DNA of 32,253 nt from Vulcanimicrobiaceae bacterium (lineage in GTDB: Bacteria > Vulcanimicrobiota > Vulcanimicrobiia > Vulcanimicrobiales > Vulcanimicrobiaceae), in assembly GCA_046262595.1 (NCBI GenBank), contig JBHEMM010000030.1, positions 1 through 32,253 of the forward strand, given 5' to 3'. The position numbers were made by a program, and so were the translations under genes. Positions 5,357 to 26,711 of this stretch are shown one piece after another; positions within the stretch are counted from its first letter, which is position 1; every line of letters begins with the position of its first letter. The notes under the pieces were generated by a model. The model worked only from the letters and a program-made list of their open reading frames with translations. It ran no database searches and was not told where the DNA came from.

Positions 5357-5393
5357 GGCGGTCCCGGCCGAGCGCGAAAAGGCCCGCTATTCC

Positions 5394-10313: not shown

Positions 10314-11059
10314 TGGCAGCGCGCAAAGTCGCCGTTCTCGTGTTCCCCGGCACGAACAGCGAGGACGAAACGTGCCGCATTCTGCGGGCGGTCGGCTTGG
10401 ACGCACACCTGGTGCACTGGAGCTGCGCCGCGAGGCTGCCGCAGTACGAAGCGTTCGTGCTGCCGGGCGGGTTTTCGTACGAGGACCGCATCCGCGCCGG
10501 CGCCGTTGCGGCACACGACGCCATGTTGGATTACGTGATCGACGCGGCACAAAACGAAAAACTGATTTTGGGCATTTGCAACGGCGCGCAAATTCTGCTC
10601 GAGGCGGGGCTCGTGCCCGGAACCGGTACCATCCGGCGGCCCACCGCTGCGTTCACGCACAATGCGCCCGTCCCGCACTTTATCTGCAAGCACGTGCGCG
10701 TGCGCTTGAACGTGGAGCCCTCCCGCAGCCCCTTCACCGCCGGAATGAACCGCGAAGAAGTGTTCCCCGCCTGGGCCGCGCACGGTCAGGGACGGCTGGC
10801 GGCAACGCCGGCGCATCTGGAGGAATTGGTGCACGGCCGCCACGTGGCGTTCGTATACGAGAACGGTGCGCCGAACGGCTCCGCGCTCGACTGCGCCGGC
10901 CTTTTGAACGATGCGGGCAACGTGTGCGCGATCATGCCGCATCCGGAACGCGATGCTTGGTCGTTCAATCATCCGGACCGGCGTGAAGGCGGGATTCTGA
11001 CGCCGTCGGGCGGCGTTCGCTTTTTTCAAAGCTTCGCCCAAGCAATGGAACGGCCATGA
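10313..11059 (+). CDS. purQ: FGAM synthase glutaminase subunit
   Basis: FPGTN, LPGGFSYED, GICNGAQIL (nucleophile Cys), MPHPER; SD AGGAGG 10297-10302; TAGTG overlap with purL. Confidence 0.95.
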   Translation: MAARKVAVLVFPGTNSEDETCRILRAVGLDAHLVHWSCAARLPQYEAFVLPGGFSYEDRIRAGAVAAHDAMLDYVIDAAQNEKLILGICNGAQILLEAGLVPGTGTIRRPTAAFTHNAPVPHFICKHVRVRLNVEPSRSPFTAGMNREEVFPAWAAHGQGRLAATPAHLEELVHGRHVAFVYENGAPNGSALDCAGLLNDAGNVCAIMPHPERDAWSFNHPDRREGGILTPSGGVRFFQSFAQAMERP

Positions 11060-11478
11060 CGCAGAGGACGATTGCCGTCAAGTTGAAGATTCCCGACAAC
11101 GAAGCGTACACGGCGCTCGTTGCGCTGCAGCGTTTAGGCGTCGCCGTTTCGAAGGTCGAGCGAGCCGAGATCTGGCAGTTCGACGACGAGGGGCTGACGC
11201 CGGTGGAAGCGCGTTTTGCGAGCAATGAGATGCTGTACAACTCGAACAAGCACGAAATGCAGGTGCTCGACGGCGGGCGCCCACGCACCGGGGAGGTGTG
11301 GATCGAAGAGCTCGATGCCGCCGGCGTTCCGCTGCGCATGACGGGCGCCTCGCACGCCCGCCGTTACGTCGCCTGGCGGCTATACGGGCCGGACAAAATG
11401 TCTGCGGCGTCCGGCGTCGTGCGCGAAGCGGCCGAAAAACTCTTGTGCAACCCTGCGATCGAAAGGGCCCTTCAATGA
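11056..11478 (+). CDS. purS: Double-length PurS-like subunit of FGAM synthase
   Basis: Directly after purL-purQ with ATGA overlaps; C-terminal EKLLCNPAIE is the PurS signature, echoed mid-protein by MLYNSNKHE; 140 aa versus about 80 for usual PurS. Confidence 0.7.
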   Translation: MTQRTIAVKLKIPDNEAYTALVALQRLGVAVSKVERAEIWQFDDEGLTPVEARFASNEMLYNSNKHEMQVLDGGRPRTGEVWIEELDAAGVPLRMTGASHARRYVAWRLYGPDKMSAASGVVREAAEKLLCNPAIERALQ

Positions 11479-11891
11479 ATCAGCCTTACACCATTGCCAC
11501 GCTGGGCTCCCATTCGGCGCTGCAGATACTCAAAGGCGCGCACGACGAAGGTTTTCGCACCCTCGCGATTGCGAACCGCGAGACAGAGAGCTTGTACCGT
11601 TCCTTCGGGTTCGTCGATGAAGTGATCGGCATCGATACGTATCAGGCGTTTCCCGGCCTGTTCGGCGCGTTCTGCATCGAGACGATCATCACGCCGGACA
11701 TGCAATTTTACATCATGGAGATTTCCGCGCGCATCGTAGCGGGTACGAACCTTTTTATCGACGGCTCTCCGTACTCGTATTTGAACTACTCCGAGCCGAT
11801 GTCCACCGGCCGGCGCATTGCGCGCGAACTCAAAAACGCACTTTTGACGGGGAACCTACGTTTCGTACTCGATGATTCGAGCGTGCTTTAA
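11475..11891 (+). pseudogene. purP: Archaeal-type PurP (formate:AICAR ligase family) with a large in-frame internal deletion; 138 aa
   Basis: N-terminal IATLGSHSALQILKGAHDEGFRT joined directly to C-terminal GLFGAFCIE...EISARIVAGTN...MSTGRRIARE; the central ATP-grasp core is absent. Could also be an assembly collapse. Confidence 0.75.
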
Positions 11892-12984
11892 GTCTCTTGC
11901 GGTCCTGGCCTGCGCCGCCGCGCTCTGCGTCCCGGCGAAGGCGGCGACATTGGCGGATCCGGACGTGCTCTACGCACAGATGAACGCTGTTCTCCAGCGC
12001 GGGGACCGCGAAGGCTGGACGCTGTTCAACCGCGAGTACCTGCTGGCGACGATCTTCGATGCCGGGCGCGCCTATTCGCTGCAGCGGCCCGACGATCCGA
12101 AGTACCCGCAGGTGGAGCAAATGACGGTCGACGCTGCGGCGGATCTGCATTACGATCCGCTGATCAATCACGAAGCCGTGGAATGGTACGTGCGCGAGGC
12201 CGCAGTCGACATCGAGAAGACGTCGGCCGATCCCGCCGAAGCGGCGAAAGCACGCGATTTGCTGGCGCGCGTGGATGCGCTTGAAGATCCGGCCGCGCTG
12301 GCGAAATTTGCGGACGAAGACGCGGCCGCAAACATCGTCCAATATCCGCGCGATGCGGACGCGCTGCTCGCGCGCGTCGAAGCGAACTGGCGCGGCTGGC
12401 TCATCACCCGTGACCCGTCATGGCGCGCGTGGGCGCTCGTGCGCGCCTCGCAGTTCGATTTTCCTATCGGCAGCCTGCCTTCATCGTGGGGCCCCGGCTT
12501 TCTGGCGTTCGTAAAAAGCGCCGCTCACGGCGGTCATGGCGTTACTGCGGCCGAGCGCGACAACGCGCAACTGATTTTGCAGAATCTGAAGAAATTGACC
12601 GCCCTAAAAGTCATCGCAAACGTGAACGCGCAGGCCTCACACGATCAGGTAATGACCACGCTTGCGCCGGCGGATGAATATTTCGGGCCGCTCGGCATGT
12701 CCATTTTAGGCATGCGCAACGAGATGAGCCGCGTAAACGCGATGATCGGGTTCGGCGAAGCGCAGCGCGAGAGCGATCCGGCGGTTCAGATCGCGCTGGC
12801 CATCGACGACCTTCACCGCGTGTACCCGCGCGACCGTGATGTGCCGAAACTGCTCTACGACATTCAAGACACGCTCGCCAAGATCGATACGCCGCAGGCG
12901 AAGACGGAGCGTGCGCACATGCGAGCGGTGCTCACGGTCGAGTATCAAGACACCAAGCAAGCGCACGATCTTTTGGGGCCGTAA
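11872..12984 (+). CDS. Secreted/exported, probably alpha-helical hypothetical protein
   Basis: 370-aa ORF with host-like codon usage and a signal peptide (SLAVLACAAALCVPAKA|A); overlaps the purP end by 20 nt. Confidence 0.75.
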   Translation: MIRACFKSLAVLACAAALCVPAKAATLADPDVLYAQMNAVLQRGDREGWTLFNREYLLATIFDAGRAYSLQRPDDPKYPQVEQMTVDAAADLHYDPLINHEAVEWYVREAAVDIEKTSADPAEAAKARDLLARVDALEDPAALAKFADEDAAANIVQYPRDADALLARVEANWRGWLITRDPSWRAWALVRASQFDFPIGSLPSSWGPGFLAFVKSAAHGGHGVTAAERDNAQLILQNLKKLTALKVIANVNAQASHDQVMTTLAPADEYFGPLGMSILGMRNEMSRVNAMIGFGEAQRESDPAVQIALAIDDLHRVYPRDRDVPKLLYDIQDTLAKIDTPQAKTERAHMRAVLTVEYQDTKQAHDLLGP

Positions 12985-13003
12985 CGCACTAAGCGTTTTC
13001 GTC

Positions 13004-14296
13004 CTAAGCGTTTATCGCAGCGAGGCTTGCCTCGAACGCACGAACGAATTCCGCCGAATCGCCATCGCTGAAAATGAGCGGCGGTTGAATGCGCATGATG
13101 TTGCCGAAGCGGCCGCCCTTTCCGACGAGCACGCCGCGCTTGCGCATCTCTTCGAGCATGCGCGTCGCCTCGGCGGCGGCGTACGTCTTGCGCGTGTCCT
13201 TGACGAGTTCGACGCCGATCATCAAGCCCCGCCCGCGCACCTCGCCGATGATCGGGTAACGCTGCTGCAGTTCGCGCAGAGCGCTCAAAAGCGTTTCGCC
13301 TTGCCGTTTGGCGTTTGCGATCAGGTGGTGTTTTTCAATGACATCGATCGTCACACGCGCAGCGCGGCTCGAAACGGGATTGCCGCCGAACGTGTTGATG
13401 TGCGGGCCTTTGAAAATGTCCGCAAGCTCCGGACGCGTGATGGTGATCCCGATGGGAACGCCGGAACCCAACCCTTTTGCCGACGTAATGATGTCCGGAA
13501 CCACTCCGTACGTTGCCGGCATCCCGAACATTCCGTCGCCTAAACGTCCCCACCCCGTTTGCACTTCATCGGCAATCAGCAGCGTTCCGAACGGTTCGAG
13601 CGTTTCGCGCAAGACCTTGAAGTACTCGGGCGGCGGCGTGATGATGCCGCCGACGCCGGCGATCGTTTCGGCGATCATCGCCGAAGGCGCGCCGTTGGTC
13701 TGCGTTTCGATCACGCGTTTGGCCGACTTGGCGCAGGCGATCTCGCAGGAAGGGTAGGTCAGGCCGAGCGGACAGCGATAGCAATACGGATTGGGCACGA
13801 ACGCGACGTGCGGATACTGCGCGGCGAAATTGCGCCAGTTGCTCTGCCCCGCCATCGCAACGGTATAGAGTGTCCGCCCGTGATAGGCGTGTTCGAGCGC
13901 CAGAAAATCCGGCGACTTCTTAGCCGTGCGCGCGACGACCGCCGCCATCTCATTCGCTTCCGAGCCGGAGTTGCCGAAGAAGCTTTTGCTCATGCCCTCG
14001 GGCGCGACGTCGGCGACTTTTTCGGCGAGATCCAGCATCTCTTCGGTCAAATACAGCGCGGAGACATGCAGCAGCTTCTTCGCCTGATCGGCGACGGCTT
14101 GCGCGACTTCCGTGTCGCCGTATCCCAGCGTGTTGGTTGCAATGCCGGCGAACGCATCGAGATATTCGTTGCCGCCGTCGTCGCGGACGCGCGTTCCTTC
14201 GCCTTCGACGAGCGTGAGCGGCTCCTCGTAATACGTCGTCTGCGCCGCGAAAAGATGATCGCTCGCGCGTTTTGCATTGTTTTTAAGCAGTCGCAT
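13004..14296 (-). CDS. Class III PLP aminotransferase, by context beta-alanine:2-oxoacid aminotransferase (PydD-like)
   Basis: SGSEANE, YHGRT, LIADEVQTGWGR, SAKGLGSG, NTFGGNP; last gene of the pyd operon. Confidence 0.88.
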   Translation of the reverse strand: MRLLKNNAKRASDHLFAAQTTYYEEPLTLVEGEGTRVRDDGGNEYLDAFAGIATNTLGYGDTEVAQAVADQAKKLLHVSALYLTEEMLDLAEKVADVAPEGMSKSFFGNSGSEANEMAAVVARTAKKSPDFLALEHAYHGRTLYTVAMAGQSNWRNFAAQYPHVAFVPNPYCYRCPLGLTYPSCEIACAKSAKRVIETQTNGAPSAMIAETIAGVGGIITPPPEYFKVLRETLEPFGTLLIADEVQTGWGRLGDGMFGMPATYGVVPDIITSAKGLGSGVPIGITITRPELADIFKGPHINTFGGNPVSSRAARVTIDVIEKHHLIANAKRQGETLLSALRELQQRYPIIGEVRGRGLMIGVELVKDTRKTYAAAEATRMLEEMRKRGVLVGKGGRFGNIMRIQPPLIFSDGDSAEFVRAFEASLAAINA

Positions 14297-15755
14297 TTGC
14301 CGCAGCCTCCTCGGGAACCGCCTGCGGCGCCGGCCGCATCAGCAGTTTGTATGCAATCAGTCCGCCGAGCAGACTGAAAATCCATCCTCCGCTCCACAAA
14401 AAGTGCAGCGGCGGCACGAACAGCCCCAACGCAGCGAGCGCCCACCCGGCAACGAGCGCGAGCGCCGCGCGTACGTTAAACCCGCGCGCATATGAGTAGA
14501 GGCCTTGCGGCTTGTAAAGTTCCGCTAAATCGATATAGCCGCGGCGAACGAGCCAGTAGTCCGCGATGGCAATGCCGTCGAACGACCCCAGCATCGCACC
14601 GTACGTGCCGAGCCATAAAAAGATGTACGACGAAAACGACGAGAGCACGTACCACGGCTGCATCGCCAGGCTGAGCAAGCCGGTAAGTACCGCCCCCGCG
14701 GCAAAGGTAATGCGCTGCGGCCAAAGGTTCTCTAAAGCGCGCGCCGGCGCCATCACGTTTGCGCCGACGTTGATCGTCACGGATGAGAGGATCACGACGA
14801 TGCCGGCGATGACGATCTCCGGCGTGGGAAAGCGCACGATCAGATCGACCGGATTCCAGAGCGCCTTGTGAAAGAGGATGACGGTTGCCGAGGTCACCGC
14901 AATGCCGGCGAACGAAAATAGCGCCATCGCAACCGGCATCGAGAGGGCCTGCCCCAGCATCTGGCCGCGCTGCGTCTTCGCGTACCGGGTGTAATCCGGA
15001 ATGTTCAACGCCATGGTCGCCCAGAACGCAATGACGCCGACGACGGAGGGAAGAAAGGCATTCCAAAAGCCCGCGCCGTGAATCGTCGCGGGCGCCGCGA
15101 GCATCGGCCCGAATCCTCCTGCGCTGTGCGCCGCCCAAAAAACGAGCGCAATGGCGCCCACGGCCAGTGTCGGCGCCGCGATCTGCGCGAGACGTCCGAT
15201 CGCCTGCGGTCCGCGCATGGCGATGGCCACGTTTATTGCCCAAAACAGTGCAAAGGCGGCGCCCAAATGCAAGCCGATACCGTGCCAAAACGGCAAGATG
15301 CGCGTGAAGATTGCATCGAGCGCCTGGCCGCCGAACCACGAATTGATGCCGAACCATCCCGCCGCGATGATCGCGCGCGCGAGCGCCGGAATGTGCGCGC
15401 CGCGCGTGCCGAACCACAACCGCGCAAACACCGGATACGGAATGCCGTAGCGCGCGCCGGCGTGCGAGACCAGCAGTATTGCCGCAAGCACGACGGCGCT
15501 TCCGGAGAAGATGGAAAGCACCGATTCCCACCAGTTCATTCCCAGCGCTATCATGCCGCTCGCGAGCGAATACGTCGGCAAGCACAGGCACATGCCTATC
15601 CAGAGCGATGCGAATTTGCTTGCGCGCCACGAGTGTTCGGCGAGTGTGCACGGCCGCAGATCGTCGTTCCACATGCCGGCGTTCTTCGCGGCGGCGCGTA
15701 CGGCGTCGGGCGTGAGCACGATAACGTCGCCCACCTCCGCCTGCGTTGCCGTCAT
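14283..15755 (-). CDS. NCS1-family nucleobase (uracil/dihydropyrimidine) permease (PydP-like)
   Basis: Many hydrophobic segments; GARYGIPYPVFAR, GWFGI, FWATMALNIPDYTRY, IADYW; start ATG 15755. Confidence 0.9.
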   Translation of the reverse strand: MTATQAEVGDVIVLTPDAVRAAAKNAGMWNDDLRPCTLAEHSWRASKFASLWIGMCLCLPTYSLASGMIALGMNWWESVLSIFSGSAVVLAAILLVSHAGARYGIPYPVFARLWFGTRGAHIPALARAIIAAGWFGINSWFGGQALDAIFTRILPFWHGIGLHLGAAFALFWAINVAIAMRGPQAIGRLAQIAAPTLAVGAIALVFWAAHSAGGFGPMLAAPATIHGAGFWNAFLPSVVGVIAFWATMALNIPDYTRYAKTQRGQMLGQALSMPVAMALFSFAGIAVTSATVILFHKALWNPVDLIVRFPTPEIVIAGIVVILSSVTINVGANVMAPARALENLWPQRITFAAGAVLTGLLSLAMQPWYVLSSFSSYIFLWLGTYGAMLGSFDGIAIADYWLVRRGYIDLAELYKPQGLYSYARGFNVRAALALVAGWALAALGLFVPPLHFLWSGGWIFSLLGGLIAYKLLMRPAPQAVPEEAAANATA

Positions 15756-15757
15756 CG

Positions 15758-16642
15758 CTAGACGTACACCAAATCGTCGTACGTTTCGGGACGGCGATCG
15801 CGGTAAAACTGCCACGTATTGCGCACGTCGGTGATAATGCGGCGATCCATCGTGCCCAAAATCACCTCGTCACGGTCGCGACTGGCGGTCGCGACGAACT
15901 GCCCGCGCGGATCGACTATATACGACTGCCCGTAGAACTCGCCCATGTTCCAGGGCGTTTCCGTGCCCACGCGGTTGATCGCGCCCAAATAATAGCCGTT
16001 CGCGACGGCGTGCGCCGGCTGTTCGAGCTTCCACAGATACTCCGAGAGGCCGGCGACGGTCGCCGATGGATTGAACACGATCTCCGCGCCGTGCAATCCC
16101 AGCATACGCGCCCCTTCGGGAAAGTGGCGATCGTAGCAAATGTACACGCCGACCTTCGCGAACGCGGTATCGAAGACGGGATAGCCCAAATTACCCGGGC
16201 GGAAGTAATACTTCTCCCAGAAGCCGCACCCGGCGGGCCCGGCCTGCACCTGCGGCAGATGATGCTTGCGGTATTTGCCCAGATACGCGCCGTCCGCATC
16301 GATCACCGCCGCCGTGTTGTAATAGACGCCGGCAAATTCTTCTTCGTACATCGGAACGACGAGCACGATGCCGAGCTCTTTGGCAAGGTCCTGCATCAGG
16401 CGCGTCGTCGGCCCGTCGGGAATCGGCTCGACTGCGCCATACCACTTCGTCGTCTGTTCCGTGCAGAAATACGGGCCGTAAAACAGCTCCTGCAGGCAAA
16501 CGATCTGCGCGCCGCGCTGCTTCGCCTCGCGGATCATGCGCACGTGTTTTTCGATCGCGTTCTTTTTATGAACCTCGACGGGCTCGCTGCCGTCCGTGTC
16601 ATGATGCGCTTGAATCAACCCGATGCTGACTGTGGGTTCCAC
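15758..16642 (-). CDS. Nitrilase-family beta-ureidopropionase (N-carbamoyl-beta-alanine amidohydrolase)
   Basis: Glu-Lys-Cys triad: LQELF, YRKHH, ICYDRHFPE; FWEKYYFRPGNLG; SD AGGAGG before GTG 16642. Confidence 0.9.
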   Translation of the reverse strand: MEPTVSIGLIQAHHDTDGSEPVEVHKKNAIEKHVRMIREAKQRGAQIVCLQELFYGPYFCTEQTTKWYGAVEPIPDGPTTRLMQDLAKELGIVLVVPMYEEEFAGVYYNTAAVIDADGAYLGKYRKHHLPQVQAGPAGCGFWEKYYFRPGNLGYPVFDTAFAKVGVYICYDRHFPEGARMLGLHGAEIVFNPSATVAGLSEYLWKLEQPAHAVANGYYLGAINRVGTETPWNMGEFYGQSYIVDPRGQFVATASRDRDEVILGTMDRRIITDVRNTWQFYRDRRPETYDDLVYV

Positions 16643-16650
16643 GTGGCCTC

Positions 16651-18042
16651 CTAGAGCTGGACGGGGTAGAAGGGCGAGCTTTTTTGAAACCGGCCGGCGC
16701 CTTTGGTTCCGGTGAACGTCGTGCCGTCCGCAACTTTGCGGCCCCGCGAAAAAACGTACCGCGGGCTGCCGTGAATCGTCATGCCGTCGAAGACGTTGTT
16801 GTCGACGTTCATGTGGTGCGTCTTCGCCGAGATCGTGCGCGTCTTGGCCGGATCCCACACCACGATGTCGGCATCGCTGCCGGCGGCAATCGTGCCTTTG
16901 CGCGGAAACAGGCCGAACAGTTTTGCCGGGTTGGTACTGCCTAGAGCGACAAAGTTATTCAAGCCAAGCACCTTTCGGTTCACGCCCACCTCGTAAAGGA
17001 TCGCGAGGCGATCTTCAATCGTCGGCGCGCCGTTGGGGATTTTCGAGAAGTCGTTTCTGCCAAGTTCCTTTTGACCGCACAGATTGAACGAGCAGTGGTC
17101 GGAACCGAAGCTATGCAGCTCCAAGTTCTTGAGCTTGCGCAGCAGCACGTCTTGGTTCCATTTATCGCGGATCGGAGGAGAAAGGACGTATTTTGCACCG
17201 GCGAAATCCGGGCGCTCGTAGTCCGTGAAGTCGCATACCAGATATTGAGGGCACGTTTCGCCGTAAATGTTTAGGCCGCGCTTGCGGCCGTCAGAGACCG
17301 CATCCGCGGCCATCGCGCTCGAGACGTGCACCACGTAGAGCGGTGCCCCGGCGATTTCGGCAAGGCGAATTGCACGATGCGTGGCCTCACCTTCGCATTC
17401 GACCGGCCGCGTGAGTGCGTGCCACTTGGGCTCCGTTTTGCCTGCTGCCAGGGCCTGTTTGGTCGTCACCTCGATGACGTCGCCGTTTTCGGCATGCACT
17501 TGCACCAGCCCGCCATTCGCGGCGCAGGTCTGCAGCGTTTTGAAGATCGTTTCGTCGTCCACTTGCAGCACGTGTTTGTAGGCCATGAAGACCTTGAACG
17601 AATTCACGCCTTCCTCAGAAATCATGCGCGGGATCTCGGCCATCGTCTCGTCGCGGCCGTCGGCTATCGTCAAATGAAAGGCGTAGTCGATGCATGCTTT
17701 GCCGGATGCTTTTTGATGCCATGTCTTGAGCGCGTTCGCGAGCGAGTCGCCGCGCGTGTGCAGCGCGAAGTCGACGATCGTCGTCGTGCCGCCCATTGCG
17801 GCGGCGCGCGTCCCGGTTTCGAAGTCGTCCGCCGTGACGGTTCCGCCAAACGGCATGTCGAGATGCGTGTGCGGGTCGATGCCGCCCGGAAAGACGTACG
17901 CGCCGCTCGCGTCGACGATCTCATGCGTCCCGGCGGGCAAATTCACGCCGATCGCCGCAATCTGCTCGTCCTCGACGACCACGTCGCCGGGATAGGTGTC
18001 GGTGGCGGTCACGACGGTGCCGCCGCGGATCAGTAAACTCAA
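16651..18042 (-). CDS. hydA: Dihydropyrimidinase
   Basis: PGGIDPHTH, SFKVFMAYK (carbamylated Lys), VHAENG, VVHVS, GSDHC; TTG 18042 overlaps the preA stop. Confidence 0.95.
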   Translation of the reverse strand: MSLLIRGGTVVTATDTYPGDVVVEDEQIAAIGVNLPAGTHEIVDASGAYVFPGGIDPHTHLDMPFGGTVTADDFETGTRAAAMGGTTTIVDFALHTRGDSLANALKTWHQKASGKACIDYAFHLTIADGRDETMAEIPRMISEEGVNSFKVFMAYKHVLQVDDETIFKTLQTCAANGGLVQVHAENGDVIEVTTKQALAAGKTEPKWHALTRPVECEGEATHRAIRLAEIAGAPLYVVHVSSAMAADAVSDGRKRGLNIYGETCPQYLVCDFTDYERPDFAGAKYVLSPPIRDKWNQDVLLRKLKNLELHSFGSDHCSFNLCGQKELGRNDFSKIPNGAPTIEDRLAILYEVGVNRKVLGLNNFVALGSTNPAKLFGLFPRKGTIAAGSDADIVVWDPAKTRTISAKTHHMNVDNNVFDGMTIHGSPRYVFSRGRKVADGTTFTGTKGAGRFQKSSPFYPVQL

Positions 18043-19280
18043 GACGACCGTTCTTTCCAGGATTGCGAAGGCACGCCCGCATCCACACGCACCATTTCGA
18101 TGCAGTCTTGCACGGGACAGACCATCTGGCACAAATTGCAGCCGACGCACTCTTGTTCGTCCACGACGACCATGGCCGAACCATTCGTCCCTATGCGGTC
18201 GATGCACTGGTGTGCCGCGTCTTCGCAGGCGATATAGCACTTGTTGCAGCGGATACACTTGTCTTGATCGATCCGCGCGACGACCTTATAGTTGAGGTTG
18301 AGGTTCTCCCAGGTTGTGATGCGCGATGCCGCGGCGCCGGCGAGTACGGCGACGCTGCTCACGCCGCGCGAGTCCAGATAGCGCGAGAGGCCGTCGATCA
18401 TATCTTCAACAATGCGGAAACCATGATGCATGACGGCGGTGCAGACCTGGACGTTGCCGGCGCCCAGCAAGAGAAACTCCGCCGCATCGCGCCACGTTTC
18501 GATGCCGCCGATGCCGGAGATCGGAATATTCACTTGCGGATCGCGGGCGCACTCGTTCACCATGTTCAGCGCAATAGGCTTCACCGCCGCGCCGCAATAA
18601 CCGCCATGGCTGCTCATGCCGTCGACGTGCGGAACCGGGTTCCACGTCTCGAGATCCACGCCGATAATGCTGTTGATCGTGTTTATTAGGCTGATCGCGT
18701 CCGCGCCCCCGTTCACCGCGGCGCGGGCGACGGGGCGGATGTCGGTGATGTTGGGCGTGAGTTTCACGATGACCGGAACGCGCGCGGCTTCTTTAACCCA
18801 CGTCGAAACTTGCTCGATGAGGTCCGGATGCTGGCCCACTGCTGCACCCATGCCGCGTTCGCTCATGCCGTGCGGGCAGCCGAAGTTCAGTTCGAATCCG
18901 TCGATGTCCACTTCTTGCACGCGCTTGACCAGGTCGTGCCATGCCTGCCGTTCGCATACTTCCATTAGCGATGCCACGACCGCGCGTTCGGGAAAAGTTT
19001 TCTTGCACTGCGCGATCTCGCGCAGATTCTCGTCGAGCGGCCGGTCGGTGATCAGCTCGATGTTGTTCATGCCGATCATCTTGTTCTGCTTGTAGTCCAG
19101 CGCGGCGAAGCGCGAGGTGACGTTGACGATCGGCGTTCCCAGCGTTTTCCACACGGCGCCGCCCCAGCCGGCCTCGAATGCGCGCATCACTTGATAGCCG
19201 CTGTTCGTCGGCGGCGCCGATGCGAGCCAGAACGGATTGGGACTTTTGATGCCCGCGAGATTGGTTTGCAGATTAGCCAT
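18039..19280 (-). CDS. preA: Dihydropyrimidine dehydrogenase FMN/Fe-S subunit
   Basis: NPFWLASAPPT, ELNFGCPHGMSERGMG, KLTPNITDI, INTINS; C-terminal 2x[4Fe-4S] motifs CIRCNKC and CVGCNLC. Confidence 0.95.
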   Translation of the reverse strand: MANLQTNLAGIKSPNPFWLASAPPTNSGYQVMRAFEAGWGGAVWKTLGTPIVNVTSRFAALDYKQNKMIGMNNIELITDRPLDENLREIAQCKKTFPERAVVASLMEVCERQAWHDLVKRVQEVDIDGFELNFGCPHGMSERGMGAAVGQHPDLIEQVSTWVKEAARVPVIVKLTPNITDIRPVARAAVNGGADAISLINTINSIIGVDLETWNPVPHVDGMSSHGGYCGAAVKPIALNMVNECARDPQVNIPISGIGGIETWRDAAEFLLLGAGNVQVCTAVMHHGFRIVEDMIDGLSRYLDSRGVSSVAVLAGAAASRITTWENLNLNYKVVARIDQDKCIRCNKCYIACEDAAHQCIDRIGTNGSAMVVVDEQECVGCNLCQMVCPVQDCIEMVRVDAGVPSQSWKERSS

Positions 19281-20562
19281 GGTTGACCGCCTCGAAAGAT
19301 TCGTGGATCGCTGCCGCGACGCGTTTGCCTTGTTCGGCGGCCTCCACGACCATCGCTTCGCGCATGCCTTTCTCGAAGATGCAGTCCCCGGCCGCGTACA
19401 CGCCGGCCCTACTGGTGCGCAACTGCTCATTCACGCGAATCACGCCGCGGTCGTGTTCGATGCCGAAGGCTTCGATCTCCGCCAGTAGCCGGCTTTGACC
19501 GATCGCGCGGATGAACGTCGTGACAGGCTCGATAAACGCGCTGTCCGGTAGGCGCGTCGCGTCAGCGGCCGTTTGCACGAATTCGACCGCCTCGACGCGT
19601 TCGCCGCCCAAAACGCGGACCGGTGCGCAGAAGAAGCGGAACTCGATCCCTTCTTGTTTGGCGAAATCGTATTCGAACTGGTACGCCGTCATTTGTCCCG
19701 CGCCGCGGCGATAGTAGCACGTTACACGCGCGCCCGGAGCGAGCCGCTTCGCGCAGGTGAGCGCGTCGATCGCCGTGTTGCCCGCGCCGATGACGGCAAC
19801 GTGCGCACCCAGGCGGCCCGTGTCCAAACCACGTTTCGCCCGTTCGATGAAGTCGAGTGCGTCCCAAACGCCCGGAAGGTCCTCGCCCTCGATGTTGAGC
19901 CGCGGCACGGCACCCATGCCGCACGCGATCACGATCGCGTCATATTCGGCGCTGATCTGCTGAAACGGAACGTCAATTCCGATGCGCATGTTCGCGCGCA
20001 GTTCCGCGCCCAAGGCCAGCACTTGACCGGCTTCCCAAAGCGCCGTTTGCGTGTCGAGGCGGAATGGCACGATGCCGTACGTGTTCAAGCCGCCGGCATC
20101 GTCATGCGCGTCAAACAGCGTAACGGCATGGCCGAAGCGGCGCAGGTCGCGTGCGGCGGAGAGCCCGGCCGGCCCGGCGCCGATCACCGCCACGCGAAAT
20201 CCCGTCGGCGCGCCGGGCGTAAACAGCGCAATGTTCCCGTTCATTACGTGGTCGACGGCGAAGCGCTGCAAATCGCCGATACGGATTGGCGAGTCGCCGG
20301 CCGCGTGATAAACGCAGGCGCCCTCGCACAATTGCTCGGTGGGACAGACGCGCGCGCAGCTCGCGCCCATGGGGTTTGCTTCCATGATGACGTGCGCGCT
20401 TCCGGTGACGTTCCCCGACGTAATTTTTCTGATGAACGAAGCGACGTCAATATGCGTTGGACACGCATTCGTGCATGGCGCGTCGTAGCAGTTCAAGCAC
20501 CGGTTGGCTTCCAAGCTCACCTCCACCGCCGAGAGCGGACGATGGATAGACTCCCCGAGCAT
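19273..20562 (-). CDS. preT: Dihydropyrimidine dehydrogenase FAD/NAD(P)H subunit
   Basis: RCLNCYDAPCTNACP, CARVCPTEQLCEGAC, GAGPAG, GAGNTAID, AAGD. Confidence 0.93.
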   Translation of the reverse strand: MLGESIHRPLSAVEVSLEANRCLNCYDAPCTNACPTHIDVASFIRKITSGNVTGSAHVIMEANPMGASCARVCPTEQLCEGACVYHAAGDSPIRIGDLQRFAVDHVMNGNIALFTPGAPTGFRVAVIGAGPAGLSAARDLRRFGHAVTLFDAHDDAGGLNTYGIVPFRLDTQTALWEAGQVLALGAELRANMRIGIDVPFQQISAEYDAIVIACGMGAVPRLNIEGEDLPGVWDALDFIERAKRGLDTGRLGAHVAVIGAGNTAIDALTCAKRLAPGARVTCYYRRGAGQMTAYQFEYDFAKQEGIEFRFFCAPVRVLGGERVEAVEFVQTAADATRLPDSAFIEPVTTFIRAIGQSRLLAEIEAFGIEHDRGVIRVNEQLRTSRAGVYAAGDCIFEKGMREAMVVEAAEQGKRVAAAIHESFEAVNHG

Positions 20563-20574
20563 GCGCGTACCTCT

Positions 20575-22083
20575 TTATTTGTGCGTAGGAAAACCGAGAT
20601 TGATGCCCGCGCCCGATTCGTGCCAGCGTGTCGTGACGACTTTGCCGCGCGAGTAAAAGCGGAACCCATCCTCGCCGTAGATATGCAGATCGCCCAACAG
20701 CGATGCTTTCCACCCGCCGAAGCTATAGTAGCCCACGGGTACCGGAATCGGAATGTTGATACCGACCATACCCGCCGCGACCTCGTTTTGAAAACGCCGC
20801 GCCGCCGCACCACTCCGGGTGAAGATCGATGCGCCGTTGCCGTACGGGTTGTCCGCAATGAGGCGCAGTGCCTCGTCCAATCCCGACGCCCGCACGTTGA
20901 CGAGCACCGGGCCGAAAACTTCATCGCGATAGATCGACATCTGCGGCGTCACGCGATCGAAGAGCGTGGGACCGACGAAAAACCCCTGCTCGTATCCCGG
21001 CACGTTGACCGTACGGCCGTCGCAGACGAGCTGCGCGCCGGCGGCGATGCCTTGTTCGATGTAGTCCAGAATACGCTCGCGCGCCGCCGGCGTCACGACC
21101 GGGCCCATGTCGCTGCGCTCATCGCTGCCAGCGCCGATTTTCAAGTTGCCGATGCGCTCGATCAGTTTAGGAAGCAGCGCGCCGGCCGCATCGCCCACGC
21201 AGATGCTCGCCGAGATGGCCATGCAGCGCTGACCGGCGGAGCCGTAACCTGCAGACACCAGCGCGTCGGCCGCGGCATCCATGTCGGCATCGGGCATGAC
21301 GACCAAATGATTCTTTGCGCCGCCGAGCGCTTGAACGCGTTTGCCGTTCGCCGCAGCCGTTGCGTAGATCGCACGCGCGATCGGCGTCGAGCCGACAAAA
21401 CTGATCGCGTCGACTTGCGCATGTGCGAGCAGCGCGTCCACGGCTATTTTATCGCCGTGCACGACGTTGAATGCGCCGTCCGGCAAACCCGCGCGCGCGA
21501 GCAGCTCGGCGGCCAGCAGCGCGGCCGACGGATCGCGTTCCGACGGCTTGAGCACGAACGTGTTGCCGCAAGCCAGCGCTATGGCGAACATCCACGCCGG
21601 CACCATCATCGGAAAGTTGAAGGGCGTGATGCCGGCGCAAACGCCTAGAGGCTGGCGCAGCGAATAGGTATCGACGGAAGACGAGACGTTCTCGCTGAAT
21701 TCGCCTTTGAGTTGATGCGGCAGCGAGCAGGCAAAATCGACCACTTCGAGTGCGCGTGCAACCTCGCCCTGTGCGTCGCTCACCACTTTTCCGTGTTCGC
21801 TCGATACGATCTCGGCGAACTGCGCAGCATGTTCTTTGAGGAGATTGCGGAAAGCGAACAACACCTCGGCGCGCTTGCCCAACGGAGTGCGGCTCCACGC
21901 CGGAAACGCCGTGCGCGCCGCTTGCACTGCTGCATCGACATCCGCAGCGGAAGCGAGGGGCACTTTGGCCTGCACCTGACCGGTGGCAGGATCGAACACA
22001 TCGCCGAAGCGTCCGCTGCTGGGCGTTTCCAAGCGTCCGCCGATGAAATGGGCGATGGTGCGTACTTTCGTTGGAGCTTGCAT
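20575..22083 (-). CDS. mmsA: CoA-acylating (methyl)malonate-semialdehyde dehydrogenase (PydE-like)
   Basis: ITPFNFP, LKPSERDP, FVGSTP, GGAKNH, AGQRCMA, EVFGPV; start taken as ATG 22083 (MQAPTKV). Confidence 0.93.
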   Translation of the reverse strand: MQAPTKVRTIAHFIGGRLETPSSGRFGDVFDPATGQVQAKVPLASAADVDAAVQAARTAFPAWSRTPLGKRAEVLFAFRNLLKEHAAQFAEIVSSEHGKVVSDAQGEVARALEVVDFACSLPHQLKGEFSENVSSSVDTYSLRQPLGVCAGITPFNFPMMVPAWMFAIALACGNTFVLKPSERDPSAALLAAELLARAGLPDGAFNVVHGDKIAVDALLAHAQVDAISFVGSTPIARAIYATAAANGKRVQALGGAKNHLVVMPDADMDAAADALVSAGYGSAGQRCMAISASICVGDAAGALLPKLIERIGNLKIGAGSDERSDMGPVVTPAARERILDYIEQGIAAGAQLVCDGRTVNVPGYEQGFFVGPTLFDRVTPQMSIYRDEVFGPVLVNVRASGLDEALRLIADNPYGNGASIFTRSGAAARRFQNEVAAGMVGINIPIPVPVGYYSFGGWKASLLGDLHIYGEDGFRFYSRGKVVTTRWHESGAGINLGFPTHK

Positions 22084-22141
22084 CCCTACGTGTTCGACGC
22101 GTCGGCGGGTGGTCTTGCGAGAAGTGTCCAACGACGCGGCC
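22084..22141. promoter_or_regulatory. Compact divergent control region between the pyd operon and the purP-like gene
   Basis: 58-bp head-to-head gap with no SD on either side; palindrome CGACGCGTCG 22095-22104; AAGA-N16-CGAA on - and GGGT-N17-CCAA on +. Confidence 0.45.
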
Positions 22142-23242
22142 GTGACGGACGCTGCGCCCACCCTTTGCTCGATCGGAAGCCACTCGGCCCTTGAAGTGGC
22201 ATACGGCGCGCGCGCCCAAGGCTTGCGAAACCTCGTCGTGACGGCGAGAGGACGCGAGAAAACGTACGCGCGGTACTACGCGAGTGCCGCCGCGCCGCCG
22301 CGCGGGTGCGTCGATGAAACGATCGAACTCGAGCGTTTCGCCGACTTGCTTCGCCCGGACGTGCAAGCGCAATTGCAGGCGCGCAAGGTGCTGTTCGTGC
22401 CCAACCGCTCCTTTGAAGTGTATTTGCACGAGCAGTACACGTACGATGAGATCGAAGCCGGCATGAAAGTGCCGGTGTTCGGAAACCGGCGCTTGCTGCG
22501 CGCCGAAGAGCGCGGCGAGGCGGATAATCAGTACGCGCTGATGCAGCGCGCCGGTATCCGGCATCCGCTGCAGTTTCCGTCATCGGATGCGATCGACCGT
22601 TTGGTGATGGTGAAGGCGCCGCACGCAAAAGTCACGTTCGAGCGGGCGTTTTTCTTGTGCGCCTCGCCCCAAGAATACCGCGACCAAGGCCGCCGCCTCA
22701 TGCGCGACGGCGTTCTGACGGCGCAAGGCCTTGACGGCGCGGTAATCGAGGAGTACGCGCTCGGTCCATCGATCAATTTGAACTTTTTCTTCTCGCCGGT
22801 TTTGAACGAACTCGAACTGTGCGGCACGGACACGCGCCGCCAAACGAATCTCGAAGGTTTCCGCAACGTGCCGCCTTCGGCGCTCGAATCGCTGCGTGCC
22901 GTCCCCATGCGCTTGGAAGAAGCCGGACATATTGCCGCCACGCTCACAGAGTCGATGCTGGAGAAAGCATTCGAGATGGGCGAGCGGTTCGTGCGCGCCG
23001 CGCGTGAGGCGAATCCTCCGGGCGTGATCGGCCCGTTCGCGCTGCAATGCATCATCATTGCCGGACCGCCGAAAGAATTCGTGTGCTACGACGTTTCGCT
23101 GCGCATCCCCGGCTCGCCCGGAACCCGCTACACGCCGTACTCCGCATACCGTTGGGGGCGCGATGTTTCGGTAGGCGAACGCATCGCGATGGAAGTGGTG
23201 TTCGCCCGCGAAGCAGGGCGAATCGCGGATATTCAGACGTAG
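22142..23242 (+). CDS. purP: Archaeal-type PurP-like ATP-grasp protein (second paralog type), full length about 366 aa
   Basis: SIGSHSALE, VPNRSF, PVFGNRRLLRAEER, FERAFF, DTRRQTN, EEAGH, PPGVIGPFALQ, DVSLRIPGSPG, GERIAME; start GTG 22142 (alternative 22124). Confidence 0.88.
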   Translation: MTDAAPTLCSIGSHSALEVAYGARAQGLRNLVVTARGREKTYARYYASAAAPPRGCVDETIELERFADLLRPDVQAQLQARKVLFVPNRSFEVYLHEQYTYDEIEAGMKVPVFGNRRLLRAEERGEADNQYALMQRAGIRHPLQFPSSDAIDRLVMVKAPHAKVTFERAFFLCASPQEYRDQGRRLMRDGVLTAQGLDGAVIEEYALGPSINLNFFFSPVLNELELCGTDTRRQTNLEGFRNVPPSALESLRAVPMRLEEAGHIAATLTESMLEKAFEMGERFVRAAREANPPGVIGPFALQCIIIAGPPKEFVCYDVSLRIPGSPGTRYTPYSAYRWGRDVSVGERIAMEVVFAREAGRIADIQT

Positions 23243-23306: not shown

Positions 23307-23840
23307 ATGACTATAACGATGGGCGGAAATCCGGTCGAGCTGGACGGTCCGGACCTGCAGGTGGGCGACAAAGCGCCCGATTTCACGGTCGTCTCGGACG
23401 GCATGGGTGACACTAAAACGCTTGACGACGTCATCGAGCATGGCAGAAAGAACGCACTGCTGATCGTCGTGCCTTCTCTGGACACCAACGTGTGCTCGAT
23501 CGAATCGCAGAAGTTCAACGCACGCCTGGGCCAACTGCCCGCCGACACTGCGGCCTATGTCGTAAGCCGGGACCTGCCGTTTGCGCAGAAACGCTGGTGC
23601 GGTGCTCAGAGCGGCGGCGCAGTGCGGCTCGGCATGCTCTCCGACGCGCGCGATCACCGTTTCGGGCCTGCGTACGGCGTGCTCATCAAAGGTGTGGGCT
23701 TACTCGCGCGCACGGTGTTCATCATCGGTAAAGACAAAACGATCAAATACAAGCAGGTCGTGCCTGAGGTCGGCTCCGAGCCCGACTATGACGATGTCAT
23801 CGCAGCGGCGTCCAAACTTTCTTCCGCGGTCAACGCATAA
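23307..23840 (+). CDS. tpx: Thiol peroxidase (atypical 2-Cys peroxiredoxin)
   Basis: VPSLDTNVC, SRDLPFAQKRWC, EPDYD; SD GGAGG 23296-23300. Confidence 0.93.
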   Translation: MTITMGGNPVELDGPDLQVGDKAPDFTVVSDGMGDTKTLDDVIEHGRKNALLIVVPSLDTNVCSIESQKFNARLGQLPADTAAYVVSRDLPFAQKRWCGAQSGGAVRLGMLSDARDHRFGPAYGVLIKGVGLLARTVFIIGKDKTIKYKQVVPEVGSEPDYDDVIAAASKLSSAVNA

Positions 23841-23880
23841 TCACAAAGAGCGGCCGAGCGGTGAGCCGAAAGGGCCGGCG

Positions 23881-25434
23881 GTGAACTCCCCGGCCCTTCC
23901 TTCAACCGTCTTTATCCTCGACTTCGGCGCGCAGTATAGTCAGCTGATTGCACGGCGCGTGCGCGAGATGAACGTGTATTGCGAGATTGTTCCGTACGAC
24001 ACGCCATGGGCCGCATTGTCGGCACGTAATGCGAGTGCCGTCATTCTGAGCGGCGGCCCCGAAAGCGCGCTTGCTCCGGGCGCACCGCAGATGGACGCCG
24101 CAATCCTGCGCAGCGGTCTGCCGCTGCTCGGCATCTGTTACGGCATGCAGCTTATCGCTCGCGAATTCGGCGCGGAGCTGCTTGCGCACGGCCAGGCGGA
24201 GTACGGTCCCGCAACCCTTCAAACCGTTTCGGCGACGGCGCTGTTCGCACGGGTTGCAGAGCGTTCGCGCGTTTGGATGTCTCACGGTGATTCCGTAAGC
24301 CGCCTGCCGGACGGCTTTGCGATAGCAGGCTCGACGAGCCGCTGTAACGTGGCGGCGATCGCCGACGACGCGCGCAAGCTCTACGGCGTTCAATTCCATC
24401 CCGAAGTCGTACACACGGAATATGGAAAGCAACTGCTGCGCAACTTCGTGCTTGAGATTGCCGGCGTTGCCGGTGATTGGCAGATGGAGTCTTTTGTCGG
24501 GCACTCTATCGAAAGCATTCGCGCGCAGGCCGGGTCCGACAAGGTAATCTGCGCCCTCTCCGGCGGCGTCGACTCGGCTGTCGCCGCCACGCTGGTCGCG
24601 CGCGCCATCGGCGAACAGCTGACCTGCATCTTCGTGGATCACGGCCTGCTGCGCAAAGACGAAGCAAAGCGGGTCATCGAAGCATTCCGCGACGTCCTGC
24701 ACCTCAATCTGATAGCGATCGATGCGCGCGAACGGTTTTTGAGCAAATTGCGCGGGATCGAAGACCCCGAACGCAAGCGCATCGTTATCGGGCACGAATT
24801 CATCCGCGTGTTCGAAGAAGAAGCGGCAAAAATTCCCGGCGTAAGGTACCTCGTGCAGGGCACGCTGTATCCGGATGTGATCGAATCGAAAACGCCGCAG
24901 AGCAAAGCGGGCCACAAAATCAAATCGCACCACAATGTCGGCGGCCTGCCCGAACACATGAACTTCGCGCTCATCGAACCGTTGCGCGCACTCTTTAAAG
25001 ACGAGGTTCGGGCGGCCGGCAAAGTGCTCGGCTTACCCGAAGCGATCGTTCAGCGTCAGCCGTTTCCCGGTCCCGGGCTAGCGGTACGCATCATCGGTGA
25101 CATCACGGAAGAGCGGCTCGCGCTGCTGCGCGAAGCTGACGCGATCGTCTGCGATGAGATCGACGGCGCCGCGCTCGATGCCAAGCCGTGGCAGTATTTT
25201 GCCGTGCTCACGCCCGTCAAGAGCGTCGGCGTCATGGGCGACGGCCGGACCTATTCGAATCTCGTTGCCGTACGCGCCATCACGAGCGAAGACGGCATGA
25301 CGGCCGATTGGGCGCGGTTGCCGTTCGATCTGCTCGAACGCATTTCGACGCGCATCGTGAATGAAGTGCCCGGCGTCAACCGCGTCGCGTACGACATCAC
25401 CTCAAAACCGCCCAGCACGGTGGAATGGGAATGA
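23881..25434 (+). CDS. guaA: GMP synthase (glutamine-hydrolysing)
   Basis: ILDFGAQYSQLIARR, GICYGMQ, QFHPEV, SGGVDS, KSHHNVGGLP, SKPPSTVEWE; start GTG 23881. Confidence 0.96.
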   Translation: MNSPALPSTVFILDFGAQYSQLIARRVREMNVYCEIVPYDTPWAALSARNASAVILSGGPESALAPGAPQMDAAILRSGLPLLGICYGMQLIAREFGAELLAHGQAEYGPATLQTVSATALFARVAERSRVWMSHGDSVSRLPDGFAIAGSTSRCNVAAIADDARKLYGVQFHPEVVHTEYGKQLLRNFVLEIAGVAGDWQMESFVGHSIESIRAQAGSDKVICALSGGVDSAVAATLVARAIGEQLTCIFVDHGLLRKDEAKRVIEAFRDVLHLNLIAIDARERFLSKLRGIEDPERKRIVIGHEFIRVFEEEAAKIPGVRYLVQGTLYPDVIESKTPQSKAGHKIKSHHNVGGLPEHMNFALIEPLRALFKDEVRAAGKVLGLPEAIVQRQPFPGPGLAVRIIGDITEERLALLREADAIVCDEIDGAALDAKPWQYFAVLTPVKSVGVMGDGRTYSNLVAVRAITSEDGMTADWARLPFDLLERISTRIVNEVPGVNRVAYDITSKPPSTVEWE

Positions 25435-26711
25435 GAATACTCGTCGTCGGCGGCGGGGCCAGAGAAGATGCGCTGTCGTGGCGTTTGCAGTCCAGTGCAT
25501 CGTGCGACGCGATCTTTGCGGCGCCGGGCAACGCCGGAACAGCCCGCCGCGGCGAAAACTGGAACGTTTCGGCAACGGACGGCAAGCCGCTCACGCAGCG
25601 TGCGCTTTCGGAAAAGATCGACCTCGCCGTGATCGGGCCGGAAGTTTCCATTGCCGCCGGCGTGAGCGATCGCCTGCGGGATGCGGGCATCGCCGTCTTC
25701 GGCCCAAGCCGCTCGAGCGGCCGTCTGGAAACAAGCAAGATATTCGCCAAGCGCTTCATGGAGCGGCACGGCGTTCCAACGGCGCGCGCGCTGATCGTGC
25801 ACTCGCTCGAAGGGGCGAACAAGGCGCTTGAAACGTGGCGGGGCGGCGTGGTCGTGAAAGCCGACGGGTTGGCGGCCGGCAAAGGCGTCGTGGTGGTCCA
25901 GAGCGTTGACCAGGCGCGCGGCGTGTTATCCGAGTGGTACGCAAGCGGCAAAGTCCCGGGCGGCGGCAGCGACGTGCTCCTCGAAGAAAAGCTCGAGGGC
26001 CGCGAGATCAGTTTGTTCGCGATTTCTGACGGTCGCGCGATGTATCCCATTGCTTCGGCGTGCGATTACAAGCGCGCAGGCAACGGCGACACGGGCCCAA
26101 ACACGGGCGGCATGGGCGCGTATTCGCCTCCCCAAGGGTTCCCTGCGGACTTTGAGGATGTCGTGCGGGAACGCGTGCTCGCGCCGGTGCTGCGCGGACT
26201 GCTGGCGGAAGGCGAGCGTTATATCGGCGTGCTGTACTGCGGGCTGATGTGGACGCAGGCAGGCCCGTATGTAATCGAATTCAACGTCCGCTTCGGCGAT
26301 CCGGAGGCGCAAGTGCTGATGCCGCGCGTCACCGGCGACTTCGCCGCACTGCTGCGCTCCGCGGCGGATGGCGCAATCGACTTAAGCGCCGCGTCGTTCG
26401 CCGCACGGGCGTGCGTGGGCGTTGTGCTGGCTAACGAAACATATCCGCGCTCGAGCTCGCCCGTGGCCGGATTACCTGGGAACGTGGACCTCGGTCTGGA
26501 CGCCCAGGTGTTTTGGGGAACCTCCAAGCTCGACGCCGACGGAACGGTCAGTTCCAGCGGCGGACGGGTGCTGACGGTGACGGGTATGGGCGACGACGTC
26601 GCGCTTGCGCGCATCCGCGCCTACGATGCGCTGCGCGATCTGGCCGCGCGCCTCAAAGCCGCGCACGGTCTCACGTACCGCACCGACATCGCGGACACCG
26701 GCGGCCTTTAA
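25431..26711 (+). CDS. purD: Phosphoribosylamine--glycine ligase
   Basis: APGNAG, KADGLAAGKGV, DTGPNTGGMGAYSP, EFNVRFGDPE, GGRVL, YRTDI; ATGA overlap with guaA. Confidence 0.96.
   Translation: MRILVVGGGAREDALSWRLQSSASCDAIFAAPGNAGTARRGENWNVSATDGKPLTQRALSEKIDLAVIGPEVSIAAGVSDRLRDAGIAVFGPSRSSGRLETSKIFAKRFMERHGVPTARALIVHSLEGANKALETWRGGVVVKADGLAAGKGVVVVQSVDQARGVLSEWYASGKVPGGGSDVLLEEKLEGREISLFAISDGRAMYPIASACDYKRAGNGDTGPNTGGMGAYSPPQGFPADFEDVVRERVLAPVLRGLLAEGERYIGVLYCGLMWTQAGPYVIEFNVRFGDPEAQVLMPRVTGDFAALLRSAADGAIDLSAASFAARACVGVVLANETYPRSSSPVAGLPGNVDLGLDAQVFWGTSKLDADGTVSSSGGRVLTVTGMGDDVALARIRAYDALRDLAARLKAAHGLTYRTDIADTGGL

Follow-up and report, generated by a model that had tools for sequence, protein, structure and literature searches.

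The locus described here raises the question of whether a free-living soil bacterium makes purines by a route regarded as archaeal. It lies on a stretch of 32,253 nucleotides (nt), hereafter the window, which is contig C30 of G000, a metagenome-assembled genome (MAG) of 2.42 Mb in 122 contigs (89.7% complete) from a soil bacterium of the family Vulcanimicrobiaceae in the phylum Eremiobacterota/Vulcanimicrobiota. Two open reading frames (ORFs) in the window resemble PurP, the formate- and ATP-dependent synthetase of FAICAR (5-formamidoimidazole-4-carboxamide ribonucleotide). The original prediction, made from the sequence alone, was that they are one copy of each of the two archaeal paralogue types, transferred from archaea and replacing PurH. 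Published surveys treat PurP as confined to Archaea, and one of them gives PurP in 0 Bacteria among 1,403 complete genomes (PMC6486802). Here, we found that the second ORF is an intact PurP III gene, that the first is the remnant of a PurP II gene with a large in-frame deletion, and that the pair is maintained, beside a normal PurH, throughout a class of free-living soil bacteria. This shows that the pair cannot be explained simply as a replacement of PurH.

Domains were annotated with Pfam on the 29 candidate ORFs of the window, and the curated cut-offs of NCBIfam were also applied. For comparison, we used 41 related genomes (counting G000) from three families (f1-f3) of one class, the best 80 of 191 confirmed related loci, and a phylum sample of 121 genomes for which at least 90% completeness was requested and matches were accepted at E <= 1e-30. 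The tallies include four unpublished genomes (G011, G022, G023 and G036), and no claim is based on these alone. The NCBI taxonomy treats Baltobacteraceae as Vulcanimicrobiaceae, to which the cultured Vulcanimicrobium alpinum belongs; the closest relatives of G000 are placed in this same family.

Brown et al. (2011; PMC3261824) describe archaeal PurPs of clusters Ia and Ib as having the P-loop (K/R)GG(K/R)G and Asn258, and those of cluster II as carrying His at 258 and a glycine-free loop that is longer by two residues; His27 and Arg314, which contact the formyl group (MJ0136 numbering), are given as 100% conserved. The product of the second ORF (type B) is a full-length member of this family. 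Both Pfam domains scored above the gathering score, DUF1246 over model positions 2-121 of 122 (3.8e-33, 114.5 bits) and DUF1297 over 1-187 of 188 (1.5e-51, 175.1 bits), and residues 7-359 matched the PurP structure of M. jannaschii (PDB 2r7k, 2.1e-54). Its start is the GTG at 22124, the previously given 22142 being an in-frame GTG. The protein has His20, the loop PHAKVTFERA (residues 166-175), His269 and Arg327, among which His20 and Arg327 are the equivalents of His27 and Arg314. In the HMMER alignment its loop reads KAPHAKVTFERAFF against KFPGARG--GRGYF in MJ0136, that is, two residues longer, basic and free of glycine, and GH stands where MJ0136 has GN; this histidine (H271) is nearly invariant across the 47 rows of the type B alignment. 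The longer glycine-free loop and the histidine at the position of Asn258 therefore assign type B to cluster II, or PurP III. The gene has no internal stop codon. With dS near saturation, its ratio of nonsynonymous to synonymous substitution rates (dN/dS, or omega) had a median of 0.111 in nine pairs with G000 and of 0.084 in 36 other pairs; selection on type B is not clearly relaxed in G000.

The first ORF (type A) is homologous to PurP and is not a whole member of the family. Pfam matches above cut-off covered only positions 1-51 of 122 in DUF1246 and 98-186 of 188 in DUF1297, the NCBIfam matches also fell in two stretches, and a tblastn search with the 356-amino acid (aa) orthologue of G007, a complete genome, found query residues 11-73 and 278-352 only. 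Nucleotide alignment with the orthologues of two genomes of the same genus (G002 and G003) revealed a single in-frame gap of 606 nt, or 202 codons, which leaves about 59 N-terminal and about 79 C-terminal residues; CCGAA is present at both ends of the deleted stretch in G002. The P-loop, the equivalent of Asn258 and the ATP-grasp core all lie in the deleted part, and the window's copy thus lacks both marks of PurP II. Because the P-loop and the ATP-grasp core are lost, the remnant cannot be a ligase, and it is predicted to be unable to bind ATP in the normal way. It has kept the equivalents of His27 and Arg314 (His13 and Arg86), the ATGA in which the purS stop overlaps its own start, and the overlap of its end with the next gene, X370.

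The class of the type A gene can be read from its intact orthologues, which have GAQGGKGY (Gln at the first position of the motif) and an invariant G245-N246. The full-length orthologue of G007 scored higher with PF1517 of Pyrococcus furiosus (337.6 bits) than with MJ0136 (301.5 bits; 7.3e-89). The best score to PF1517, together with this loop and the invariant Gly-Asn, therefore places type A in cluster Ib, or PurP II. Types A and B are 31-32% identical to each other and are therefore ancient paralogues rather than products of a local duplication. The original prediction was borne out in part by these results: both ORFs lie where it had put them, the motifs SARIVAGTN (residue 84 of the first ORF, nt 11724), FERAFF (in the PHAKVTFERA region of the second) and SLRIPG (residue 325 of the second) are present, the genes are embedded in a purine operon, and their GC content (0.60-0.63) is host-like when compared with 0.59-0.66 over the remaining window (0.53 in the first kilobase). 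Its family assignment and the two ancient types also held. The first ORF, of only 138 aa, is not a whole PurP, and one of each type is not functionally present, since type II is without its catalytic core.

The age of the deletion was examined through the retained codons. Over these 137-138 codons, dN/dS was 0.071 against G002 and 0.028 against G003 (G002-G003, 0.040). Although the retained parts have diverged by 15% in nucleotide sequence, only one of the final 79 residues is not the same as in G002. This means either that the species separated (dS 0.8-1.6) long before the deletion arose, or that constraint on the remnant persists. We consider that the deletion was probably recent. The 138-aa product forms a singleton cluster, found on one contig among about 15 billion proteins.

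To place this damaged copy, the distribution of the family was surveyed. PF06973 was detected in 41/41 related genomes, nearly always twice; the exceptions were single matches in G006 and G022 (both fragmented assemblies), fragmented matches in G001, G014 and G020, and a type A gene cut by a contig end in G004. In the phylum sample, 70 of the 121 genomes were positive, comprising 59/59 of f1, 1/1 of f2, 9/9 of f3 and G000, and the domain was found in 0/51 genomes of families f4-f18. All 69 other positive genomes carry two matches, one intact copy of each type, and a single strong match was obtained in G000 alone, where only type III is intact. We also considered, and rejected, that type A is decaying gradually in several lineages: the breaks in G001 and G014 come with a fragmented type B gene, in G001 also with a fragmented PurH, and are thus read as the result of error-prone assemblies.

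Three further cases deserve mention in this respect. At L066, type A is in three pieces in a long-read MAG. In G020 (L107, G020:C186:1-6000), the alignment of type B is limited to query residues 8-74 and 185-366, the two pieces lying about 120 nt apart, and an in-frame TGA interrupts type A; the cause could be damage to the PurP genes in a second lineage, or the quality of a poor assembly (80% complete, 270 contigs). Contigs C1 and C2 of the public bin G143 (loci L018 and L024) hold two copies each of A and B in the same local context, probably reflecting two strains binned together or a large duplication.

The two genes are commonly neighbors. Among the 80 loci, 43 have the order purQ/purS-A-X370-B-(tpx)-guaA, or a part of it with X370 between A and B. 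In five loci B directly follows A, and in G007 the two genes overlap. Two loci have X370-B with A off the locus, one has a fragmented A, and 23 have B without A inside the fetched flank. In five genomes with B in another context, A was intact in all, in four of them at a distance of 27-33 kb along the contig that carries B, in the fifth on another contig. In the window the two genes are also separated by an insertion, a complete-looking set of reductive pyrimidine-catabolism genes of about nine kilobases on the opposite strand to the pur genes. Pyrimidine genes also separate the PurP genes in G001 and G014 and do not in G003 of the same genus; PreT/MmsA genes stand directly upstream of B, as in the window, in 6/80 loci.

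Whether the pair replaces PurH can be answered from the rest of the genome. The Pfam search found no purH, purN, purT or purO within the window, as the original prediction had stated, and a complete purH lies on contig C11 (L003:1102-2664). Its predicted product of 520 aa has both halves of the enzyme (PF01808, the transformylase domain, 334.5 bits; NF002049, 582.1 versus a cut-off of 402; TIGR00355, 518.3 versus 528, just under), and PF01808 was matched in 41/41 related genomes. The inferred replacement of PurH thus fails, and a complete PurH is the very finding that the prediction had named as contrary to it, here at the level of the predicted gene. A PurN-like ORF adjoins purM on C6 with a sub-threshold score (130.6 versus 150.1 bits), as does a PurN-like gene, again sub-threshold, in 41/41 genomes; the purM match on C6 is split by a run of unknown bases. 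The genome also has purK (439.9 versus 375) and purE on C14, as well as FolD and FolP. No PurT scored above cut-off in any of the 41 genomes, the best match being purK, and neither PurO nor formate-tetrahydrofolate ligase (Fhs) was found in the 89.7%-complete genome. With PurH and folate-dependent genes present, the canonical folate-dependent route is therefore available. A PurT-like role for one PurP paralogue was considered as well and is not needed, given the PurN-like gene (sub-threshold) beside purM in every genome.

The origin of the pair was approached with phylogenetic trees. A full scan of 1.84 billion representatives yielded 453 family members at E <= 0.001. The first trees were built from 65 of the 150 listed matches (at least 300 aa) and six added rows; for the second trees, nine fragmentary or long-branch rows were removed and 17 organism-named rows were added (quick IQ-TREE, LG+G4, with Shimodaira-Hasegawa approximate likelihood ratio support only). 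The Eremiobacteria type B clade (support 100) was sister to a protein of Roizmanbacteria, a lineage in the CPR (Candidate Phyla Radiation), with support 97, and both were inside a 28-row clade (98) with nine rows of Micrarchaeota (DPANN). The type A clade (97) was joined by one unlabelled row (98), and this group was sister to a Peregrinibacteria/Patescibacteria clade (100; joint support 92). Identity to the CPR sequences was about 49-51% for both types. On these trees the Eremiobacteria copies are nested among CPR/DPANN-type sequences. The restriction of the pair to one class (69/69 versus 0/51) fits a single transfer into the class ancestor, and the pair was probably acquired horizontally. 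For the proposed transfer from archaea to bacteria no direct archaeal donor emerged; the nearest labelled relatives are CPR bacteria.

Taken together, we rather favor the explanation that the class acquired a PurP II and PurP III module by transfer and kept it next to purL-purQ-purS in addition to PurH, that the pair serves as a formate- and ATP-dependent route to FAICAR in the relatives, and that PurP II is dead in G000. In the relatives, PurP II with its P-loop and PurP III would most likely act jointly to formylate 5-aminoimidazole-4-carboxamide ribonucleotide (AICAR) to FAICAR without folate, with ring closure then left to the inosine monophosphate (IMP) cyclohydrolase half of PurH. Both this reaction and the cooperation of the two paralogues are proposed from sequence features. 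The predicted-complex scores for the A and B proteins of G007, 0.19 and 0.12 under a mark of 0.32, count neither for nor against binding. Such a route would run parallel to the transformylase half of PurH and spare folate, and would suit a genome without formate-tetrahydrofolate ligase, in which formate could not otherwise enter the one-carbon pool. Since the PurP II of G000 has neither P-loop nor ATP-grasp core, the PurP route is probably off in this organism and PurH carries steps 9 and 10.

Several points weigh against this explanation. The remnant has no excess of amino-acid changes, and it could be under selection, the product of a very recent deletion, or an assembly or strain artefact. 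Type B is intact though its presumed partner is gone, which a stand-alone role fits equally well. The equivalog cut-offs of NCBIfam (NF009778-NF009783) were not reached by either type (225.9 versus 556 at best for type B; 383.6 versus 590 for type A of G007). To our knowledge, activity has been demonstrated for no protein of the PurP II or PurP III type. On their own, both PF1517 and PF0421 were without AICAR formyltransferase activity (PMC3261824). The trees, moreover, hold few labelled rows and no labelled classical archaea, and point to no donor or direction of transfer.

One alternative is that PurP III acts alone, for example in a different ligase reaction or as a help in ring closure, so that its function in G000 does not suffer from the loss of type A. 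An intact type B gene beside a gutted type A, with an omega in G000 pairs close to that of the other pairs, agrees with this, as do the genomes in which both genes are intact 27-33 kb apart or on separate contigs, and the form of PurP III itself, with His for Asn258 at the contact with the AICAR carboxamide and no P-loop. Against it, A and B co-occur in 69/69 other sampled genomes of the class, types II and III occur in the same 61 archaeal operational taxonomic units (PMC6486802), and the dS between G000 and its relatives is so near saturation (0.9-1.6) that a recent loss of A would not yet be visible in B. We regard this alternative as unlikely, with some chance of being right. A narrower form of it, that G000 is a natural PurP II knock-out in which PurP III, intact and constrained, has its own role, provided that the deletion is real and not very recent, is doubtful; PurP III might then catalyse a ligase reaction of a distinct kind or assist in closing the FAICAR ring.

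The deletion itself may be questioned, since the source genome is a MAG of 122 contigs, the single match is found in G000 only out of 70 positive genomes, the short product is a singleton, and its retained parts have not decayed (omega 0.03-0.07). Were it an artefact of the assembly, or a variant found in a minority of strains, the organism would really have a full-length PurP II, as all its relatives do. Yet there is no N in the window, the gap is flanked in the relatives' sequence by no long repeat that could collapse an assembly, only by CCGAA, and the gap has disturbed neither the reading frame nor the ATGA coupling to purS nor the overlap with X370; we consider an artefact quite improbable. 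It is very improbable that the remnant is a functional small protein kept by selection, such as a regulatory or scaffolding partner of PurP III. The in-frame deletion with intact start and stop, the retained translational coupling, the low omega over 137-138 codons, the identity to G002 at 78/79 C-terminal residues despite many synonymous changes, and the kept equivalents of His27 and Arg314 speak for such a protein. On the other side, the 138-aa form is known from one genome, most of both domains is missing from it, and a recent deletion explains the low omega equally well, most of the divergence being older.

The function of the PurP II/III pair is a question that has stood since 2008-2011. 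The family of Vulcanimicrobium offers a mesophilic and potentially tractable setting in which to test the pair, and the particular value of the window is its natural deletion of one partner. If true, a stand-alone PurP III would bear on the function of the second PurP paralogue in archaea and on the IMP cyclohydrolase still missing from Crenarchaeota and Pyrococci. Annotators should not name the 138-aa ORF PurP, nor should they count the genome as folate-independent.

Table 1. Annotated features of the window (positions in nt).
Feature	Position	Strand	Evidence and remarks
purB (adenylosuccinate lyase)	5142..6830	+	Pfam Lyase_1 5.6e-35, ADSL_C 4.6e-17; true start uncertain
purC with C-terminal PurE-like segment	6407..8029	+	SAICAR_synt 2.5e-60; TIGR00081 155.9 bits
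purL (small formylglycinamidine ribonucleotide synthase)	8022..10313	+	Pfam AIRS, AIRS_C, FGAR-AT_linker
purQ	10280..11059	+	Pfam GATase_5 2.3e-37
purS-like, 140 aa	11056..11478	+	PurS 24.8 bits, residues 116-137 only; conserved upstream of the relatives' type A genes
PurP II / cluster Ib (type A) remnant, 138 aa	11475..11891	+	Partial Pfam, NCBIfam, G002/G003 alignment, tblastn
Junction of in-frame 606-nt deletion (TTTCC/CGGCCTG)	11651..11655	+	Alignment with G002/G003
X370, 370 aa, signal-peptide-like N-terminus	11872..12984	+	Conserved spacer between the two PurP genes
Reductive pyrimidine-catabolism cluster	13004..22161	-	Pfam; inserted between the two PurP genes
PurP III / cluster II (type B), intact, 372 aa	22124..23242	+	Pfam full length; PDB 2r7k; own-protein record 372 aa
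tpx-like thiol peroxidase	23307..23840	+	Pfam Redoxin, AhpC-TSA
guaA (guanosine monophosphate synthase)	23581..25434	+	Pfam GATase, GMP_synt_C
purD	25425..26711	+	Pfam GARS_N/A/C
Two tandem large proteins (535 and 563 aa), retropepsin-like aspartyl protease domains	26716-30011	-	Asp_protease_2, gag-asp_proteas; between purD and purF
purF	30832..32193	+	Pfam GATase_6/7, Pribosyltran

Other annotated genes of the window are listed with the PurP genes in Table 1. The plus-strand series begins with ribBA, ribH, an IF-2B-family isomerase and holA, followed by purB, purC, purL, purQ and the purS-like gene. When read from its first TTG, the ribBA ORF (943-2358, +) has an N-terminal HTH_3 (helix-turn-helix) match at residues 12-56, which may be either a start-codon artefact or a genuine fused regulator domain. 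The true start of purC is probably near the end of purB because its SAICAR_synt domain begins at ORF residue 147; likewise, as its GATase domain is reached only at residue 112, guaA starts further inside its ORF. The purS-like product is about twice the usual length of PurS, and only its last 22 residues or so match the PurS model; the long form is also present in G007. No Rfam match for a riboswitch or leader RNA was obtained in the window at the gathering thresholds.

X370 matched no Pfam or NCBIfam family. Its look-alikes are hypothetical proteins of Vulcanimicrobiota only, with weak TPR/YfiO leads (0.85). The protein is probably exported, yet its gene is kept within the purine operon. The inserted pyrimidine cluster comprises a class-III aminotransferase, an NCS1 permease, a beta-ureidopropionase-like CN hydrolase, a dihydropyrimidinase-like amidohydrolase, PreA-like and PreT-like proteins and an aldehyde dehydrogenase of the methylmalonate-semialdehyde type. 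A Bax1-I gene follows the two genes with aspartyl protease domains and precedes purF.

Two observations concern the carboxylation of 5-aminoimidazole ribonucleotide (AIR). The purC ORF has a PurE (AIRC)-like segment at 7625-7852 (27.7-30.2 bits, cut-off 30; model positions 8-82 of 148), and PurC may thus carry a fused, degenerate PurE-like domain at its C-terminus; the genuine purE adjoins purK on contig C14, separate from this segment. In addition, the 11 genomes of family f3 gave no PurK-like match (best purT-model E 1e-9 to 1e-12), whereas most f1 and f2 genomes have one, with up to about 190 bits. AIR carboxylation may thus differ within the class.

The closest characterised relative is MJ0136 (PurP I, cluster Ia; PDB 2R7K-2R7N), the only formate- and ATP-dependent FAICAR synthetase to have been characterised. 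Type B and the intact type A orthologue share its fold family over the whole length, with the equivalents of His27 and Arg314 kept. In contrast, MJ0136 is the single paralogue in organisms without PurH, and type B has neither its P-loop nor its Asn258. Escherichia coli has both PurT, which uses formate and ATP, and PurN, which uses folate, for the formylation of glycinamide ribonucleotide. The analogy is one of logic only, an ATP-grasp formate ligase running parallel to a folate-dependent transformylase at the same step; PurT acts at another step and belongs to another family, which is not represented above cut-off here (0/41). The CPR pairs in NCBI records of Peregrinibacteria, Roizmanbacteria and Patescibacteria also have bacterial hosts and are the nearest labelled relatives in our trees, yet CPR are symbionts with tiny genomes, whereas Eremiobacteria are free-living soil and peat bacteria of 2-5 Mb with a complete canonical pathway.

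The nearest parallel is the archaeal pair of PurP II and PurP III, as in P. furiosus (PF1517, PDB 2R84-2R87; PF0421). Its two paralogue types are those found in the class and bear identical diagnostic marks, a P-loop and Asn in type II and a longer glycine-free loop and His in type III, and its genes likewise occur as one copy each, often adjacent and linked to pur genes. PMC6486802 (its Table 1) reports this pair together with PurH in 10 archaeal genomes. We found no paper on PurP in Eremiobacterota in the literature searched, which did not include subscription journals and supplements. Here, by contrast with the archaeal pair, the host belongs to a free-living bacterial class, type II is internally deleted, and inserted genes hold the two genes about 10 kb apart. 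What is new is therefore Eremiobacterota as a host lineage for a pair known from Archaea, together with a natural deletion of PurP II.

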